From an uncultured virus (IMG/VR IMGVR_UViG_2061766007_000025) (lineage: Duplodnaviria > Heunggongvirae > Uroviricota > Caudoviricetes): a stretch of 38,098 nt of DNA. Below the pieces are notes generated by a model. That model was not told where the DNA came from. It saw only the letters and a program-made list of their open reading frames with translations, and did no database searches. A program made the position numbers and the translations under genes. Below are positions 1 through 20,816 of the stretch, one piece after another. Location of the stretch: IMG/VR virus record IMGVR_UViG_2061766007_000025; one strand, given 5' to 3'. Each line of letters starts with the position of its first letter. Positions within the stretch are counted from its first letter, which is position 1.

Positions 1-1684
1 TAGCAAACATATTAGTCATTCTAGTAACTGAACGTCCTAAACATTCCATATTAGGACATATAGCAGATTTACCAGATTCGGATATAACTAATTTAGTTCC
101 ACATATAGGACAATGCTCTATAAATGGATATACCGGATTCGGATTATTTCTATTACTATCGCAATCTACAGTACTTACATATGGCATTACATCATTTACA
201 TATTTTACATTGATATAGTCGCCATACTTTAATCCCATAGATTTAAACCTTTCATAACTAGATCCAGAAGATTTAGTATGAATAGTTCCTATAAACTCTA
301 CAGGGTCATAATGAATCATAGGAGTAATATTACCGTGCTGACCTACTTCAAAAGTATAACCTCTAAATATAGTTAACTTCTCTGCAGGATCAAATTTAAT
401 TGCCATAGAATATTTATTGATATAATTCTTTCTTCCTAACTTCTGTCTAATATCTTCATCTGTATAGGAAACAACTATACCATCATACATAAAGTTTAAA
501 TAATCTCTGGCAACTTTAGCTTCATCCCAGAATGCTTTTATATTATATAAATTCTCTATATAGGTTCCATAAAAATAGCAATATCTTAATGGCTCTCCAT
601 TAGATATAAATACTCTATTTAAGAACTCTATTTCTTCCATTCTATTTGATATCTGTGGAACATCATTTCTATCAACAGCTAATGGAATAAGAGTAATATA
701 ATCTCTATACTTATAAGCATCTGAAGATCCGAATAGACCAACTATAGCAGTTCTACAATTAGCATAATTGTAGTTATTAGCTATATTAAAATCACATAAA
801 TTAGATTTGGTCATTATAGCTTCAAACTTAACCCCTATAGGTTTCTCTCCTATCATACAATCTGCATGTTTAAAAGTATAACCTCTAAGCATAGGAGTTA
901 AGTCAGAAGCTTCCCCAATACCTGTATCTCCCCTAGTTCTAGCAGAGAACAATTCTAATCCACAATCAGCTTCTACAGATATACCATCATACTTCAATTC
1001 ACATACTACACCAAATTCTTTATTTGGATCTAGTATACCTTTTTGTATATGATCGGCAAAAAAGTCTCTTTCAAATACTTTTACATTAGCATCATCAAAA
1101 ACTCCAGCATCTATAGCATCTTGATTAAGAACGAATTTAGCTTTATCTAAAGTTCCTACAAGATCTGGATGATTATGTTCTGTATTATGTGTTCTTTTAG
1201 ATATATAGTCTGATTCAAATCTTAATGGATTAATATGAAAATCTCTTCCATCTACATATGTCTTATCTAATTGCATGATATTATCATATGCCTCTTGATG
1301 AACAGGATCTAGATCTCTTTTCTTTATAAAAGATATAGGACATTTAACTTGTCTATTATGCTCACCAATATTATTGAGATTCTCTTTAAAGTTTACTACA
1401 GCAGAACCAACTTGGAAATGCTCATCATAGTTCTTATACTTCTCTAATAACAGATCATAGAATCCATCTTCTATTGGAAGAGCTAACATATCTGTTCTAT
1501 TATAAAGTATATTACAACTCATAATGAGTTTCTTTAATGCTTCAACTTCTGTACTATCTAGTTCAGGTTTAGCATATAAATCTAATCCGAGTTGATTAAG
1601 CTTTGCAGTATTCTCAGAATTTATAACACTTCCATCTCCAATATTAAGAGAAAGCAAAAAAGAATCTATAAAGCTATTATCCAT
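1..1684 (-). CDS. ligA: NAD-dependent DNA ligase (3' end runs off the window)
   Basis: Not in the ORF track because it has no stop in the window. ATG at 1684 after GGAGG. Hand translation gives MDNSFIDSFLL...YNRTDMLALPIEDGFYDLLLE (domain Ia-like), VCELKYDGIS (KxDG adenylation motif, 983-994), RTRGDTGIGE and FMYDGIVV. Confidence 0.9.
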   Translation of the reverse strand, partial: MDNSFIDSFLLSLNIGDGSVINSENTAKLNQLGLDLYAKPELDSTEVEALKKLIMSCNILYNRTDMLALPIEDGFYDLLLEKYKNYDEHFQVGSAVVNFKENLNNIGEHNRQVKCPISFIKKRDLDPVHQEAYDNIMQLDKTYVDGRDFHINPLRFESDYISKRTHNTEHNHPDLVGTLDKAKFVLNQDAIDAGVFDDANVKVFERDFFADHIQKGILDPNKEFGVVCELKYDGISVEADCGLELFSARTRGDTGIGEASDLTPMLRGYTFKHADCMIGEKPIGVKFEAIMTKSNLCDFNIANNYNYANCRTAIVGLFGSSDAYKYRDYITLIPLAVDRNDVPQISNRMEEIEFLNRVFISNGEPLRYCYFYGTYIENLYNIKAFWDEAKVARDYLNFMYDGIVVSYTDEDIRQKLGRKNYINKYSMAIKFDPAEKLTIFRGYTFEVGQHGNITPMIHYDPVEFIGTIHTKSSGSSYERFKSMGLKYGDYINVKYVNDVMPYVSTVDCDSNRNNPNPVYPFIEHCPICGTKLVISESGKSAICPNMECLGRSVTRMTNMFA

Positions 1685-2606: not shown

Positions 2607-4691
2607 CTACTCTGTCCTTCTTCTACTCCTACCGTCAAATATAAATGGACTCTTAGATTCCTTACTAGCTTTAAGTTTCTGTCTATCTTTGAAATCCTTC
2701 TCATAATCAAATCCTTCACGAAGTTCTTCAGGAATAAATGAAATAGGATATTTAACAGGATCTCTATTAAAGCTAATAGGAGAAACTATATTCTTTCTAA
2801 CCTTCTTAAACTTAAGTCTACGTCCAATAGCCTTCAAGAAAGTATTAGCAATTTCTGCACTTCTATTTCTAGAGTCAGAATCCAAACGTACATCGATTGT
2901 AAATGGGTCTTCTGTATACATCTGTTCAACTAGTCTTCTACCCTGAGGTGATAAACTATGAATCATCATATTAGCTATAACTACTTCAGCTCCTAAGTGA
3001 TTCATGTTGTTAGTCTCCATGTTACCGAATCGAATTGGTGTATTTGGATATAATTCTTTATAATCTTTTCTAGCTCTAGACTTAATATTTTCATTCCTAA
3101 TATTTGTAGCTGATAATGATGTTGCACTATATTTTTCTTCGGCATACTGCTTTAAACGGAAGACATATTGCTTTCCGATTAGTATAGGCTTTCTAGATTT
3201 TATATATCTTGGTTGTCCGTTAGAACCAATCATTACAACTTCTACATCTGTCAGTTTTACAAATGGAAATGCTTTATAAATATCTGCAAGTTTATCTATT
3301 GTCATTGTATCTGATATAGGCCTCATAGATAAGAATATACTACCAGAGTTTATAATAGATTCTATATAGAAAGCTAATTCATCTCTAGTAGATTCGCTCT
3401 TCATATATTCTAGATATTCACCTTGCTGAGGAGAACACATAGAAGTATATTTATATATAAGACTATATGCTTCATCTAAAGAAAGATTATCGGTTACTAT
3501 CTTATTGATTATCTCTGTACCTATATGAGTAAGAGATAATTCAAATAACTGTCCTACATTCTCTCTTCCATACATGGTAGATGTGTTAAAGATAATATCG
3601 GCGTATTCATATTCACCTTTAGAATTCTTAAATCTTGGCATATATATCTGAGGCCACACGTCCGAAACAATTCCTTTACCGCCATATCTGTTTGCTGCTT
3701 TATCTCCAGGACCCATAGTCTTTTCTTCTAAGACTGTTATAGTCATAGTAATAAAGCTGAAATTCTTTTTATCTATATACTGTTTCTTCTCGCATACATC
3801 TTTAGCATAGTCATATAACTTAGTCAATTCATATGAGAATTCATAACCCTGGCTAATATATGGTAATAATGTCTGTACAAACTCTGTAGATTGTCTTTGT
3901 AATTCATTATAATATAACTTTAACTGAGCATAATAGTGATTCTCTAACAACTCAGGATTATTGCAATAAATATCTACATCTATAACTTTTCCATGAACCT
4001 GTTTACATTCATCAGACATAGTTATATTTCTTAATCTATCTACAGACTGATTATAGTAAGACTCTTCTTTCTTCTCTTTTCTTAATGCAATAAGATTAGC
4101 ATTTACTATAGGCTCACCTATATCTGGGAATATCTTATACTGTTTATCATCACCATAAATATTCAAAGGAATATCATTATCATTTATCATGATCTTTACC
4201 GGTTTGATAAGAGGAGATGTAAGTTTACCAGCTGCCACATCAGAGAATATAATCGAGTCTTCCATATTAGAGTCTAGATTATAATAACAAACATTAAAGT
4301 TTCTACCATCTGTTCTGTTCTCATATTCATCGAATGCTAAAGACTTTTGCATTCTAGTACCTTCAGTTACTATATCACTAACATTTAATGAATCTAGATA
4401 ATCATTATTATAAAGATAACCATAAGATTCAGTTACGTACTGATAACTTATTCTTTCAATAACTTCAAGTTTATTAGCATGAATATCTTTTAGTATAAGC
4501 CAATAATGATGATTAGGAGCAAAACTAAATTTAGATATTTTAGCTATAACTTGATAATCTGCTTTTGCTTCAGTAATAGAAGAAGATAAATCACCATATC
4601 TTTGTTCATATCCAGTACTGATTACTGGCATTTCTCCACCCATCAAACCAAGGATATGACTTCTATGAACTGAGTGCATGATTTTTCTTGC
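2607..4691 (-). CDS. phage multisubunit RNA polymerase beta subunit, C-terminal half (probably non-virion RNAP), exon 2
   Basis: GDKAANRYGGKGIVS (RpoB GDK..RHGNKG), DIIFN, RLKQYAEEK, PIRFGNME (RpoB GQRFGEME). Frame is open upstream of the listed Met to GCA AGA AAA ATC (ARKI) at 4691. Confidence 0.9.
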   Translation of the reverse strand, partial: ARKIMHSVHRSHILGLMGGEMPVISTGYEQRYGDLSSSITEAKADYQVIAKISKFSFAPNHHYWLILKDIHANKLEVIERISYQYVTESYGYLYNNDYLDSLNVSDIVTEGTRMQKSLAFDEYENRTDGRNFNVCYYNLDSNMEDSIIFSDVAAGKLTSPLIKPVKIMINDNDIPLNIYGDDKQYKIFPDIGEPIVNANLIALRKEKKEESYYNQSVDRLRNITMSDECKQVHGKVIDVDIYCNNPELLENHYYAQLKLYYNELQRQSTEFVQTLLPYISQGYEFSYELTKLYDYAKDVCEKKQYIDKKNFSFITMTITVLEEKTMGPGDKAANRYGGKGIVSDVWPQIYMPRFKNSKGEYEYADIIFNTSTMYGRENVGQLFELSLTHIGTEIINKIVTDNLSLDEAYSLIYKYTSMCSPQQGEYLEYMKSESTRDELAFYIESIINSGSIFLSMRPISDTMTIDKLADIYKAFPFVKLTDVEVVMIGSNGQPRYIKSRKPILIGKQYVFRLKQYAEEKYSATSLSATNIRNENIKSRARKDYKELYPNTPIRFGNMETNNMNHLGAEVVIANMMIHSLSPQGRRLVEQMYTEDPFTIDVRLDSDSRNRSAEIANTFLKAIGRRLKFKKVRKNIVSPISFNRDPVKYPISFIPEELREGFDYEKDFKDRQKLKASKESKSPFIFDGRSRRRTE

Positions 4692-5114
4692 AAAATTATT
4701 TACTATAAGCTGTATTAATTCTTATAGCGAGATTATAAAAATCTCCACTAGTATTACCTAGTGATTAGACTATTTGGCATCCCTATATAAATAGGGTCGA
4801 GGATTTTTCTTCCACCATTGTATACTTGTGGTTTTACTCTCCCGTCAGGAGATAGTCGTTGAACGTATTTGGATATTGTGTAAAACCAAATGTCGCTGCA
4901 ATAACGGGCCTAGTATTGAAGTTTAGGACTACATATACTCAAGATAATGTAGCTTTTATTTCACCATGCTTCATCTCTACGTTTTTTCTACTTTCGTACA
5001 TTTACGTTTATACTTCATTACACTTTGTATTCCGCTTTAGTGTAGAGCTTTAAGCCTTTACCTGCATTTAACCCTCATGAAACGCACTCATTACTGAATA
5101 CGCTGAGCAAGCAC
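4692..5114 (-). ncRNA. group I intron (IA2-like, no ORF) in the RNAP beta gene; boundaries +/-1 nt
   Basis: On the minus strand: P2 GCGTATTCA-GTAA-TGAGTGCGT; P3 GAGGGTT/AATCCTC; P AAATGCAGG; R GTTCAACGACTATC (about 4851-4864); P7.1 and P7.2 hairpins; P8; S AAATAGTCT; three P9 hairpins. Removal restores LQPFNNLNAG-ARKIM, aligning with RpoB IPFLEHDDANRALM. Confidence 0.88.
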
Positions 5115-5225
5115 CCCTGCATTTAAGTTATTGAATGGCTGCAATAAACCAGTACCACTCATTTCTTCTAGACTTTTAATATTCTTAGAAGCTTCATTGA
5201 TCTTATCTGTAAAATTTAATGCCAT
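5115..5225 (-). CDS. RNA polymerase beta C-terminal-half subunit, exon 1 (37 codons)
   Basis: AAGGAG RBS then ATG at 5225: MALNFTDKINEASKNIKSLEEMSGTGLLQPFNNLNAG; same frame as exon 2. Confidence 0.85.
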
Positions 5226-5242
5226 GATAGTTCTCTCCTTGA

Positions 5243-5467
5243 TTATTTATTTCTATATATAATTCTGCCATTCTCAAGGTTAGGATCTAATACACTTAAA
5301 TCTACTGTGACATTATCACCTTTTACAATCTTAATAGAGTTTAATCTCATCTTCCCACTGAGATTACATGTACATACATGCCCATTCTCTAAACGTACTT
5401 TAAACTTAGCACCTTTAAGTACATCTATGACTTCTCCTTTAATTTCAAATCTATCAGGACTTGCCAT
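5243..5467 (-). CDS. infA: translation initiation factor IF-1
   Basis: EIKGEVIDVLKGAKFKVRLENGHVCTCNLSGKMRLNSIKIVKGDNVTVDLS...GRIIYR closely matches bacterial IF-1; 74 aa. Confidence 0.95.
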   Translation of the reverse strand: MASPDRFEIKGEVIDVLKGAKFKVRLENGHVCTCNLSGKMRLNSIKIVKGDNVTVDLSVLDPNLENGRIIYRNK

Positions 5468-5487
5468 ATATTTTCATTCACCCCCCT

Positions 5488-5940
5488 CTACTTTTCTCGT
5501 AGATAAAATGTTAATTGATATGAAGGTTTCTCTTTATGATTAGGATGTGTGGCATAATGCTCTTCATAGAAATCTATTGTTTCTATATGGAAATTATGCT
5601 TTATATCATAATTATATACTTTTAAATTATCTTTTTCTCGTATATATTCTGGAAATTCCTTCATAAGCATAAATATATTATGAAATAAATCTTCATCCTG
5701 ATATATAATTTTGTCATCTTTAGAAAAATCTAATGGTTTATTATCCTTACCTAAAATAACTAATTTAGAATCTTCTATTTTTGGTATTACCATAGTGAAT
5801 ACACAGCGTGCTTTAGCTTGCATTCTTTTTAATGAAATATTTTTGATCTTATCGATCGATACATAGTATTTTTCATTATGCATTGGACATATAATCTTCA
5901 TTTCTGCAAACCCTTTCAATATACAATTACTTTTATCCAT
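5488..5940 (-). CDS. hypothetical protein
   Basis: 150-aa ORF; no motif recognised. Confidence 0.6.
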   Translation of the reverse strand: MDKSNCILKGFAEMKIICPMHNEKYYVSIDKIKNISLKRMQAKARCVFTMVIPKIEDSKLVILGKDNKPLDFSKDDKIIYQDEDLFHNIFMLMKEFPEYIREKDNLKVYNYDIKHNFHIETIDFYEEHYATHPNHKEKPSYQLTFYLREK

Positions 5941-17406: not shown

Positions 17407-17436
17407 TTTTTGGTAGCCATATTATTTTCTCACACT

Positions 17437-17474
17437 TATTCCCTTACCAGGAATGGTAAGGGAATATTTGTTTC
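17437..17474 (+). terminator. intrinsic terminator
   Basis: TATTCCCTTACCA/TGGTAAGGGAATA stem plus TTTGTTT. Confidence 0.75.
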
Positions 17475-17511
17475 TTACATACTGCACTTTAAAGTAATAG
17501 GAGGTGTTTTT

Positions 17512-18933
17512 ATGGCAGTAGTACAACAACTGCAAGCACCAAAGTTTGTCTATATTCATATGGAGACTTCCAATCAGTCTTTTCTAGATATGAAATATTA
17601 TCTTAAGTCTAAGGGTATACAAAATAATGATTTCTTTTTATCATTATTAGACCCTGGACTGGCAGGAGTAGATCCTAGAGACCCTACTTTATCTACAGCA
17701 ATGAAAGCTAGAGTAATGAATGAATGTAGATTAAATTATTGGTATTTTCTAAGAGAAGTAGTTCGTGTACCGGAACAAGGTGGAGATGTTAATAGTGGTA
17801 AGAGATATAAACTAGATCGTGGTAATCTAGCAATGAATTTCTTATTTGTATTAAATTTCAACCAGTTTGTAGAATTACCTCGTCAGTTTGGTAAAACTAC
17901 TTCTGCAGTAATAAGGTATCTATGGTGTTACAACTTTGGTACATCTAACTCGGAGATTATGTTCTTACATAAAGATCATACAGGATCTAAAAATAACTTA
18001 AAGAGATTAAAAGAGATTCGTTCTGCATTACCATCATACTTGCAGATGGATTCATTAACAGGAGTAGATGGTAAGAAATTAAAAGTTCCAAATACCATAG
18101 TACAAATAGAGCATCCATTTAATAAGAACAAGATTACTACATTTCCTAGTGCAAGAGCAAAAGAGGCTGCAGATAACCTTGGTCGTGGTGCTACTATGCC
18201 TTTACAATACTATGATGAGTTTGCATTTATTCCTTATAATAAAATTGTATACTTAGCAGCAATCCCTGCATTTTCTACTGCATCTAGAAATGCTAAAGCT
18301 AATGGTGCTCCTTATGGTGTATTATTAACTACAACACCAGGAGACTTAACTACAGATTCAGGTTTATATGCATATGAAGAAAGAAATAAAGCAACTCCAT
18401 GGAATGAGAACTATTATGATCTTACAATACAAGAATTAGAGCAATTAAGAGACTCTAATACAAAGAGTTCATTCTTCTTAGTATCATATACATATCAACA
18501 GTTAGGTGCTGGCCCAGAATACTTCAGAAACATGGTAGTACAAATGGGTCAAAACTGGCCAGAGATTAGACGTGAAGTTATGCTCGAATGGGCACAAACT
18601 TCTAATAACTGTCCATTTAGTGTTGAAGATTTGGATACTATAAAGAGATATTGTAAAGATCCTATACGTACAATATTATTTGGTAGATATAAGCAGTATC
18701 AATTCCAAATATATGAAGATGTAGATACTAACTATCCTCCAATAATAGGTGTCGATGTAGCAGGAGCTCTCATGCGAGATTCAAGTGCTATTACAGTAGT
18801 AGACTCTCATACAACAAGAGTTACAGCAGCTCTTAACTGTAACTATATGCCTAGTGATGACTTAGCAGATGTATTATATGAACTAATAACAAAATACTTA
18901 CCTAACGCTGTGTGCCAGATCGAACGCAACGGA
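17512..18933 (+). CDS. terL: terminase large subunit, exon 1
   Basis: ATG 17512 after GGAGGTG; Walker A LPRQFGKT, Walker B YYDEFAF, LTTTPG, RNase H-like IGVDVAG…DSSA, ending IERNG. Confidence 0.92.
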
Positions 18934-18967
18934 GCAAAGGAATGGAGATATAAATTATAACATTAAT

Positions 18968-18979
18968 AACATCTTTATA
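18968..18979 (+). promoter_or_regulatory. late promoter AACA-N6-TA for the intron HNH gene, overlapping an RBS-sequestering hairpin
   Basis: AACA TCTTTA TA; hairpin CTTTATAATAA-AATA-TTATTATAAAG (18973-18998) overlaps AAGGAG. Confidence 0.7.
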
Positions 18980-19009
18980 ATAAAATATTATTATAAAGGA
19001 GAGTTATTT

Positions 19010-19591
19010 ATGTTTAAAGAAATACCTGGTTATGATGGAAATTATAAGATTAATGAAGCCGGTGTAATACTTAATAAAAAAGAACACATGATGAGACCTA
19101 TAATAACAGATAATGGTTATCTTAGAACCGCTTTAGAAATATATGATGAAAATGGTAAACTTATAAAAAGAAATAATGAATTTGTACATAGACTGGTAGC
19201 AAAAACTTTTATACCTAATCCAGATAATCTTCCAATTGTTATGCATTTGGACAATGATACACTTAATCCATGTGTAACTAATTTAAAATGGGGAACTCAA
19301 AAAGAAAATGTTGAGCAGTGTGTTAAAGAAGGAAGAAATAGATGGGGTAGATATTCCGAAGGAACAAGATCATCATTATTTTATAAACAATGCGGTTCAC
19401 CATATAGTATTTATAATAATAAAGAAACTATCTATTGTAGTAATAGAAATGAAGTTGCACTTAGGATAGAGTATGAACTTGTAAGTTTAAAAAATATGGT
19501 AGGTAATGGAAGAGTTATTTCTAAAGGTCCATATCAAGGCTATCAGATAAAAAGAGAAAAATCAGTACCAGCTTTTTTATTTAATAATTAA
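19010..19591 (+). CDS. NUMOD4-HNH homing endonuclease (I-HmuI-like)
   Basis: FKEIPGYDGNYKINEAG (NUMOD4); VHRLVAKTFIPNPDNLPIVMHLDNDTLNPCVTNLKWGTQKEN (HNH_3). Confidence 0.92.
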   Translation: MFKEIPGYDGNYKINEAGVILNKKEHMMRPIITDNGYLRTALEIYDENGKLIKRNNEFVHRLVAKTFIPNPDNLPIVMHLDNDTLNPCVTNLKWGTQKENVEQCVKEGRNRWGRYSEGTRSSLFYKQCGSPYSIYNNKETIYCSNRNEVALRIEYELVSLKNMVGNGRVISKGPYQGYQIKREKSVPAFLFNN

Positions 19592-19994
19592 AATTTATAT
19601 CTCTATGAAGTCTCAGTATATAAAGTAATTTGTATATTCTCCTGTGTTAAAACTGTGAGTTACTGGTCAAGAGCCTTAATAACTACAACATAATCTGCAA
19701 AGATAAGTGTGATATGTTGCGAAAGCAGAAAAAATATTAAGGATGAGTATATGGTTAAATCCTAAGTACTTATTAACAAGCCAGCGTACAGTTACGAAAT
19801 ATCTATTTATATAGATATACGTCTAACGACTATCCCTTAGCGAGGGAGTAAAGCCGCAAGCTAATGGCGGAAGAAAAATCCAGCTCCTTTATTTTTATAT
19901 AAAGGATGTACATATAGTCTGGTCACGTCTTGTAATGAGAGTGATTGTGGAAATGACCACAAATTATAGAGTTGCGCCTATAATTAAACTAAAC

Positions 19995-20816
19995 GGTTTC
20001 GGTGTTTCTGTTATACAGCGTTTATGTAAGACTAGTGTAAAGAAAAATCTTTATTGGAGTATTAAAGACAAAGTTATAGAAGAAACTTTTAATGGTATAA
20101 GATCTGTTAAAAAGACTGCTAAAGTTAGAATATATGGTCTTGATTCGAATAGAGAAGTTCGTGCTAGACTTATAGAAATTCTATATGACCGTGTTCAATA
20201 TCATAAAGATAAATTTATATGTCCTTTATTACATCATGAGATGGAATGTATGGAAGTTAAAAAGAATGGTAAGGTTGAACATAGTGATACTACTCATGAC
20301 GATCAAGTATTTTCTTATCTTATGGCTATGTATGTATGGTATGATGGTGAGAATTTAGCTGAGCGTTATGGAATTCAAAAGAATACTATTAAAACAGATG
20401 AAGATGAAGAAATAGAAGAAGCTGAATATCAAGATCAATTAGAAGCTAGAGCTAAATTAGATATGTCACAAATAGATTATGAAGAAAATAATCCAGAATT
20501 AGCTGAAGCTTTAACTATGATTGAGAATGATAAGTTTATTGATGCTAATATGTTTGCTGATCAGAATAGAATATTAGAGATGCAACAAAGAGAAACTATG
20601 CTTGCTTCTAATAGACAGTTAAGAGATGCGTATTGTAAAGAAACAGGAGTAGATCCTTCTATGTATGGTGCTGTAGATATGAATGTAAATCTTAATACAG
20701 AACTTCCTGATACTTTATTCTTGGATTTAGATGATGATTTATTAGATCCTAATACACCTCTTAAAGTAGATTCACATGTTCAGGGTAATATGGCTGAATG
20801 GTGGAATATACTATAA
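19995..20816 (+). CDS. terL: terminase large subunit, exon 2
   Basis: GFGVSVIQRL…GKVEHSDTTHDDQVFS completes the nuclease domain; the track's start at 19935 lies inside the intron. Confidence 0.88.
   Translation, partial: GFGVSVIQRLCKTSVKKNLYWSIKDKVIEETFNGIRSVKKTAKVRIYGLDSNREVRARLIEILYDRVQYHKDKFICPLLHHEMECMEVKKNGKVEHSDTTHDDQVFSYLMAMYVWYDGENLAERYGIQKNTIKTDEDEEIEEAEYQDQLEARAKLDMSQIDYEENNPELAEALTMIENDKFIDANMFADQNRILEMQQRETMLASNRQLRDAYCKETGVDPSMYGAVDMNVNLNTELPDTLFLDLDDDLLDPNTPLKVDSHVQGNMAEWWNIL

Follow-up and report, generated by a model that had tools for sequence, protein, structure and literature searches.

A group I intron in a rumen jumbo-phage RNA polymerase gene that is most likely spliced after G

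Group I introns classically cut after an exon U that is paired to a G within their internal guide sequence (IGS), and they end in omega-G. Can an intron be spliced where this rule would not yield an intact protein? The question is raised by a 38,098-nucleotide stretch of DNA from an uncultured virus of the Caudoviricetes (IMG/VR record IMGVR_UViG_2061766007_000025, from a bovine gut metagenome), which we refer to at its full length as the window. On the minus strand of the window, a 423-nucleotide (nt) insert interrupts a gene for an RNA polymerase (RNAP) subunit, and the textbook cut, after U5113 and after G4691, leaves an mRNA with one base too many. A sequence-only reading of the region had proposed that the insert is a group I intron with a non-canonical 5' splice site. 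We find that splicing most likely occurs after G5114 and after G4691, giving the protein segment NAGARKIM, so that the last exon base would be a G paired to C.

The interrupted gene and its junction

From an ATG at 5225, a minus-strand open reading frame (ORF) reads MALNFTDKINEASKNIKSLEEMSGTGLLQPFNNLNAG and then meets a stop at 5093-5091. Downstream, a 690-amino-acid ORF (4679..2607, minus strand) matches Pfam RNA_pol_Rpb2_6 (E 2.7e-15) and is ~30% identical to AR9 g089 (3e-70, tblastn); counterparts in PBS1 and Staphylococcus jumbo phages match likewise. The homologues of AR9, SA1 and S6 are ~37 residues longer at the N-terminus, a segment that closes in ...DGNRS or ...NGNRS. Because these extra residues match the short upstream ORF of the window, the polymerase gene is split by ~420 nt. 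The host gene combines Rpb2 domain 6, homology to AR9 gp089 (PDB 7S00 chain C) and a conserved G-x-R near the N-terminus, and by these marks it is the C-terminal half of the beta subunit of the non-virion RNA polymerase (nvRNAP) of an AR9-like rumen jumbo phage. The match of 7S00_C to an intron-less orthologue of the window gene (4.9e-73) brings the junction arginines into line. At the insertion place of the window, AR9 g089 is uninterrupted; the AR9 relative Internexus has an intron elsewhere in the same gene. The parts of the locus that bear on splicing are as follows.

5114..5225, minus strand: exon 1 of the nvRNAP beta C-terminal-half gene (MALNF...NNLNAG and the first base of an Ala codon), aligned residue for residue with the N-termini of intron-less orthologues
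4691..5113, minus strand: ORF-less predicted group I (IA2) intron of 423 nt, beginning with U5113 and ending with G4691, from Twort-like/IStron ribozyme homology and structure
2607..4690, minus strand: exon 2 (CA AGA AAA AUC AUG ..., read as (A)RKIMHSVHRSH...), with the RNA_pol_Rpb2_6 and AR9 g089 matches given above
5105..5111, minus strand: IGS CUUGCUC, directly 5' of A5104, the first base of P2
5105-5107 with exon G5116-G5114, minus strand: putative P1, 3 bp, from the sequence and a pairing table
5108-5111 with exon 2 C4690-G4687, minus strand: putative P10, 4 bp, from the pairing table
5108..5113, minus strand: predicted U5113-G5108 wobble closing the loop GCUU (intron +1 with IGS -4), laid out as in group B IStrons
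4691, minus strand: probable omega-G, last intron base and the sole G allowing an in-frame junction that keeps the arginine

The 3' end of exon 1 reads ...AAU GCA GGG G(5114), and G4691 is followed by CAAGAAAAAUCAUG. Five ways of joining the exons were translated.

Cut after G5114, exon 2 from C4690: NAGARKIM; the intron ends in G4691
Cut after G5115, exon 2 from G4691: NAGARKIM; another register of the same mRNA as G5114/C4690
Cut after U5113, exon 2 from C4690: NAGVKKNHALSS and a stop; the textbook cut, frameshifted by one base too many
Cut after U5113, exon 2 from A4689: NAGVRKIM; requires an intron-final C
Cut after U5113, exon 2 from A4686: NAGVKIM; loses the arginine

The G5114/C4690 junction is the only one that unites an intron-final G with the spacing G-x-R-K, and the ligated exons pair contiguously with the IGS over 7 bp. 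Instead of a U paired with a guide G, the 5' exon would end in G5114, paired with C5107. The sequence-only reading had placed the exon ends, the IGS and its pairing with GGGCAAG within 4685..5120, and all of these placements were confirmed on the minus strand. Its preferred junction, with a last exon base G paired to C and an intron from 4691 to 5113 ending in omega-G, is also the one best supported by frame and orthologues. Its statement that there is no U-G wobble holds for the pair at the cleavage site, but the next pair, already within the intron, is a U-G (U5113-G5108). Similarly, the translations agree with its view that a canonical cut after GGGGU costs either the frame or the arginine, yet it had not listed the U5113/A4689 option, which gives NAGVRKIM.

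Diverged relatives of the gene were compared at 55-70% identity, namely 7 IMG/VR loci and 28 metagenome loci, with 4 of the IMG/VR contigs recurring among the latter. The 5' part of the gene is missing from 4 of the 28 metagenome loci, and the junction was read in the remaining 24. All 24 have G-x-R-(K/T) at the junction with the length unchanged, x being A (14 loci), S (5) or V (5). The sequence-only reading had named orthologues lacking this arginine as the finding that would speak against its junction, and every orthologue covering the site has it. The arginine is also kept in 7/7 IMG/VR loci (x is A in 4 and S in 3) and in AR9, SA1 and S6, aligned with that of the solved AR9 and phiKZ polymerases; presumably it is the arginine that contacts the NTP in cellular polymerases. 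On these alignments, the identity of x cannot discriminate among the junctions other than NAGVKIM. None of the diverged relatives (7 IMG/VR and 28 metagenome loci) has the same intron at the same site, and its carriers are near-identical strains only.

Two side observations concern this gene in other loci. In L034, a different intron of 333 nt (123-455) lies six codons downstream of the site of the window intron, past ...MHSV; its cut follows a textbook U, and its last base is G. In L040, the polymerase ORF shifts frame at ~1974-1977 without an insert, through either an assembly error or a real frameshift.

Related introns and the base before the cut

A 26-nt core word of the intron is common to 15 IMG/VR places in related phages. 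Related introns also occur at other sites of the same polymerase gene, for which the window and other loci serve as intron-less references. Additionally, the window contains a second intron of the same family.

18935..19995, plus strand: second intron, 1061 nt, bounded by ACGGAG/C ... AAACG/GUUUCGG (slashes mark the cuts), cut after G

The junction of the second intron is fixed by the intron-less orthologue L060, which reads IERNGGFGLSVIQ. Its 5' splice site and its IGS are separated by an HNH/NUMOD4 endonuclease ORF (19010-19591), which occupies the P1 loop. Its host gene (ORFs 17410-18960 and 19935-20816) gave no Pfam match.

Six junctions were fixed by orthologues: those of the window intron, the second intron of the window, L030 S2, L030 S3, L019 S3 and L040 S4. 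All six share a homologous P2, and the final exon triplet is paired to the base triplet that adjoins P2 on its 5' side; cleavage comes after the third of these pairs, and G is the last intron base. At the cleavage site, three introns have G-C (window intron, second intron, L030 S2) and three have U-A (L030 S3, L019 S3, L040 S4), with U-G in 0/6. Over the five insertion sites, G-C against U-A at the cut amounts to a compensatory change. Furthermore, no U is available at S2, and in L030 S3 the stretch from the splice site to P2 is free of G. For the window intron, the rule of a 3-bp P1 predicts a cut after G5114, which is the in-frame junction.

Two further family members in IMG/VR, outside the orthologue-checked set, behave in the same way. 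In L048 and L052/L055, a textbook U cut with a final G leaves one base too many, and a cut one base earlier (GAG/U, GGG/U) is in frame. Cut one base earlier, L048 reads ...RRSCGYIG, which resembles what we take to be the C-terminal motif of anaerobic ribonucleotide reductase (nrdD-like). An automated scan of the 15 IMG/VR loci for the ruler, P10 and an open frame proved too noisy and was dropped as a count. The scan missed P2 in 6 loci, and 3 were duplicates; of the other 6, 2 had no solution, 3 had several and L052 had a single one. L048 gave five solutions, all with one 5' site. Separately, in L056 the ORF upstream of the intron runs through the P8-P7-like end of another intron at ~575-725, which suggests tandem introns.

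Among the transposon-borne relatives of the intron, the IStrons, a cut after G has a precedent. Across thousands of group I introns, Tourasse, Stabell and Kolsto (2014, PMC4227781) describe 5' exons that close in U almost without fail, with C as a rare exception. The same article describes group B IStrons, which combine an IA2 ribozyme with an IS607-type element. These are inserted after AGGG, TGGG or GAGG, so that the last exon base is G and the next base, U, is the first of the intron; the U-G pair is displaced by one pair and leads into a loop, and splicing after G was confirmed by reverse-transcription PCR and sequencing (PMC4227781). For the CboIStrons of Clostridium botulinum (IS607 family), Zedaveinyte et al. 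(10.1101/2023.11.20.567912) report that a TGGG motif abuts the left end, that spliced exon-exon products are detected in cells and in vitro, and that the putative splice sites, judged by the flanking exon fragments, coincide with the transposon ends. Thus, a natural group I intron cut after G has already been published for IStrons, and the exception is real, yet precedented.

The window intron appears to have the same 5' arrangement as group B IStrons (BcISt1, and the CboIStron of C. botulinum and its phages): an IA2 ribozyme, an exon ending in a GG-type site (AGGGG in the window), U as the first intron base, a U-G pair one step inside followed by a loop (GCUU in the window), and a probable cut after G. 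It differs from them in having no insertion-sequence (IS) part, neither serine-recombinase OrfA nor TnpB OrfB, in its 423 nt without an ORF, and in its place in a jumbo-phage RNA polymerase gene. By sequence, its 5' splice site is of the group B IStron type, yet it is no IStron, since the IS part is absent and the 3' end differs. A long AU-rich inverted repeat is a further mark of group B IStrons. Several other family members depart from group B IStrons further, having no U-G anywhere in P1, and some are cut after a U paired with A.

The tie between the window intron and IStrons is also one of descent, as indicated by two matches. The closest relative of the window intron is an IStron in a jumbo-phage RNAP gene (L020, 2501-3999) at site S2 (NRFG/GKG), with an identical P2; it carries a TnpB-like ORF (Pfam HTH_OrfB_IS605), and its 3' exon lies beyond the end of the locus. 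The intron at the same site in L030 ends in CGG. Additionally, an element of Clostridium phage c-st, followed there by IS OrfA and OrfB, matches the core at 86.6% identity across 67 nt. The c-st element lies just upstream of these genes and has a GG-ending 5' flank and an apparent CGG end (UAUCGG, by eye).

How far the 3-bp rule extends is, in our judgement, an evenly balanced question. It may be that a whole clade of IA2 ribozymes in rumen jumbo phages has abandoned the U-G wobble, the third pair of a 3-bp Watson-Crick P1 abutting P2 setting the cut and the -1 base being free (G-C or U-A). Under the same proposal, the clade would span bare, endonuclease-bearing and TnpB-bearing (IStron) forms at four or more sites of one polymerase gene and in other genes. 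On that view, the one-base 'shift' published for group B IStrons would be no displaced wobble but one instance of the ruler.

For the window intron, the proposed course of splicing is that of a functional IA2 group I intron from a lineage common to Twort-like phage introns and IS607-type ('group B') IStrons. The guide CUUGCUC would lie against P2, with its P2-adjoining CUC paired to the last exon bases GGG. The first transesterification would take place after the third P1 pair, whatever that pair is, with guanosine attacking after G5114 (G-C). U5113 would become the first intron base, paired with G5108, which places the U-G pair one step inside the intron. Following step one, G5108-C5111 would pair with CAAG of exon 2 (P10) and G4691 would enter the G site. 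Exon ligation would give ...GCA GGG G/CA AGA..., that is, NAGARKIM.

The extra base and the competing junctions

A look-up of sequencing runs found parts of the stretch in 4 runs of the probable source sample and in runs from ten other studies, and contigs of 4 runs were aligned. Over 5078-5500, a Logan contig from a second run of the source sample shows 0 differences. An independent study of 2025 (run X5) supplied a contig for 5021-5170 that has 3 substitutions and 0 gaps and keeps the GGGG run, and the contig of run X9, from a 2021 study, covers 4508-4957 with 0 gaps and spans the 3' junction. No indel at the 5' or 3' junction is among the contig differences listed, which strictly leaves room for a compensated indel. 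Among the differences listed for contigs from two other studies, 14 exon substitutions were checked, and 14/14 are synonymous in the frame of their own exon; 4528, which occurs solely in contigs from remoter relatives, was set aside, as were 5293 and 5306 (outside the gene). This indicates that both exons are under purifying selection in the intron-bearing strains, in frames which the textbook junction cannot connect, and that the gene is live and no pseudogene. The extra base is biological.

In run X2, the summed contig depth rises from ~12 to ~417 over the conserved core stretches 4833-4873 and 4956-4996, and many contigs diverge from the window at 5105-5107, the start of the guide sequence. 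Together, these observations indicate that the ribozyme is highly multi-copy in rumen viromes, with a guide that differs from copy to copy.

Several points weigh against a cut after G5114 and against the group I assignment beneath it. A well-formed U-G pair lies directly beside the proposed cut. Orthologues tolerate V or S at x, and protein comparison alone leaves other mRNAs possible. The P1 partners were deduced from complementarity at five insertion sites only. The sole RNA run, X20, gave two short contigs over conserved core stretches, with 5-6 differences and covering no junction; these RNA-library contigs are most likely related introns. Rfam returned 0 matches at the gathering score over the whole window, with no group I model match, and at E up to 10 over 4400-5400 it gave just two chance matches (MALAT1, snR46). 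The window intron lacks an IS part, and its 3' terminus is UUUUG, where group B IStrons typically have CGG. Lastly, the wobble is important in the Tetrahymena ribozyme, where a C-G replacement is reported to raise undocking ~80-fold (PMC1891724).

The best-surviving alternative is the textbook cut, which we nevertheless consider improbable. Cutting after U5113 and G4691 would leave an mRNA with one extra base, read either by a +1 slip on GGGG (NAGSRKIM) or as a broken gene. The synonymous variants (14/14) argue against a pseudogene, and a slip finds no support in the window, which has no tRNA gene and no known +1 stimulator past GGGG. U5113-G5108 would be a proper wobble atop a 4-bp P1, and such a pair matters in studied ribozymes (PMC1891724), but sister introns at other sites cannot use any U-G pair, and in BcISt1 of Bacillus cereus, which has the same layout, the U was shown to stay in the intron (PMC4227781). 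With one G fewer, GGG U/CA AGA would supply the Ser-Arg codons (TCA AGA) of orthologues L008 and L009; however, the GGGG run is gap-free in the independent-study contig.

A cut after U5113 with the 3' cut after C4690 is very improbable. The resulting NAGVRKIM, with a junction containing GGGGUAAG, is in frame, retains the arginine and has the V found at x in 5/24 orthologues, and GGGU plus AAG can likewise form 7 contiguous base pairs with the IGS. Such splicing would place a C in the guanosine site, which the last intron base must occupy in step two; a C there has no known chemical precedent, and 6/6 orthologue-checked junctions of the family end in G.

Equally hard to credit is a cut after U5113 and after G4687. 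Although this is the sole in-frame junction with both a U at -1 and a final G, the product NAGVKIM would require a polymerase that tolerates the loss of the arginine together with a one-residue deletion. The arginine is present in all orthologues, which makes NAGVKIM unlikely, and the G-x-R spacing is found in 24/24 relatives, AR9 and phiKZ. Moreover, the codons AGA AAA AUC are intact in frame, and P10 would be reduced to 2 bp in a by-eye reading of the sequence.

Least credible is an assembly artefact, in which the extra base would be a sequencing or assembly error and the true junction textbook: the source is a 2011 metagenome and the polymerase gene of L040 seems to shift frame at another point, but second-run Logan contigs from the same sample are identical, and contigs of two other studies span the 5' (X5) and 3' (X9) junctions gap-free.

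Intron identity, kinship and surroundings

The 423-nt insert is a group I intron of class IA2 as judged by homology and architecture, despite lacking a U-G pair at the cut and matching no Rfam group I model. Its own strand (4691-5113) has no ORF of >=50 amino acids, and the opposite strand has one 64-amino-acid frame (4859-5053). The predicted elements of the ribozyme, all on the minus strand, are the following (columns refer to the family alignment).

5081..5104, minus strand: P2, 10 bp with a GUAA tetraloop, adjoining the IGS; covarying pairs in 7 sequences (columns 20-43)
5070..5076, minus strand: P3 5' strand GAGGGUU, partner 4799-4805; compensatory changes (columns 48-54 and 393-399)
4768..4859, minus strand: catalytic core with P7 (GACUA 4857-4853 / UAGUC 4772-4768), invariant in 7/7 aligned introns
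4781-4851, minus strand, enclosed by P7: P7.1 4839-4851, P7.2 4812-4831, P3 3' strand 4799-4805 and P8 4781-4796, from the family alignment
4703..4763, minus strand: P9 4746-4763 (aligned, columns 441-460), P9.1 4729-4745 and P9.2 4703-4727, the last two predicted from the sequence

RNAalifold on 7 family members recovered P2, P3, P4-P6, P7.1, P7.2, P8 and P9, with compensatory changes in 38/76 predicted pairs. P7.1 (columns 328-358) and P7.2 (columns 365-386) covary, whereas P7 (GACUA/UAGUC) is invariant and therefore carries no covariation. The P7 5' strand precedes the P3 3' strand and the P7 3' strand follows P8, which is the P3/P7 pseudoknot order of the IA2 form.

Homology points to the same class. 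The intron sequence matches 107 phage records, with 0 spanning 80% of the query. Positions 4746-4869 of the window are 82-87% identical to Twort-like Staphylococcus phage introns, such as that of the phiIBB-SEP1 tail lysin gene, and shorter core stretches match Enterococcus phages and Clostridium phage c-st. The 82-87% identity to Sepunavirus and Kayvirus phage introns falls in the P7-P7.2-P3' stretch. Twort orf142-I2 (IA2; PDB 1Y0Q) and the Twort-like Staphylococcus phage introns have the same P7.1/P7.2 and an extended P9. At the cut, the Twort ribozyme is described with a U-1/G8 wobble (PMC1891724), against G-C in the window intron. Exact-word scans of IMG/VR with the P7.1 core gave just two Staphylococcus-phage contigs, identical to SEP1. 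In the tail lysin of the cultured phage phiIBB-SEP1 (L012, 1270-1780), a protein reading FRGKKKG would mean that registers with an intron-final G have G as their last exon base, while the textbook junction needs one lysine dropped (FRGKKG); no intron-less allele of this gene was recovered.

Among RNA polymerase genes of jumbo phages, PhiPA3 gp210 likewise has a mobile group I intron (Birkholz et al. 2024, PMC11620839); there, unlike in the window, the lineage is phiKZ-like and the intron is described as carrying a homing endonuclease. What is new here is the setting of a probable cut after G in an essential jumbo-phage polymerase gene without a transposon. Word searches of an open-access literature subset found no prior report of a family-wide Watson-Crick cleavage pair in phage polymerase introns. 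The window intron would be a natural case, in an essential phage gene, where the rule of a U as last exon base must fail, and it would link bare phage introns to IStron ribozymes with demonstrated splicing after G. In annotation, applying the rule of an exon-final U and an intron-final G to such genes would give a frameshifted polymerase. If a 3-bp ruler with a free -1 base holds, these small ribozymes could serve for trans-splicing or scarless RNA circularisation where the site offers no U, and the family would lend itself well to studying the real contribution of the wobble pair.

The surroundings of the polymerase gene include two recognisable genes on the same strand. An IF-1-like protein is encoded just upstream of it (5243-5467, minus strand; Pfam eIF-1a, 5e-18), and an NAD-dependent DNA ligase at 2-1684 (minus strand). 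Finally, an 11-nt direct repeat, TTAAATGCAGG, was seen by eye at 5117-5127 (the end of exon 1) and at 5063-5073 (P3/J3-4 of the intron) on the minus strand, which may be due to chance or reflect an alternative pairing.

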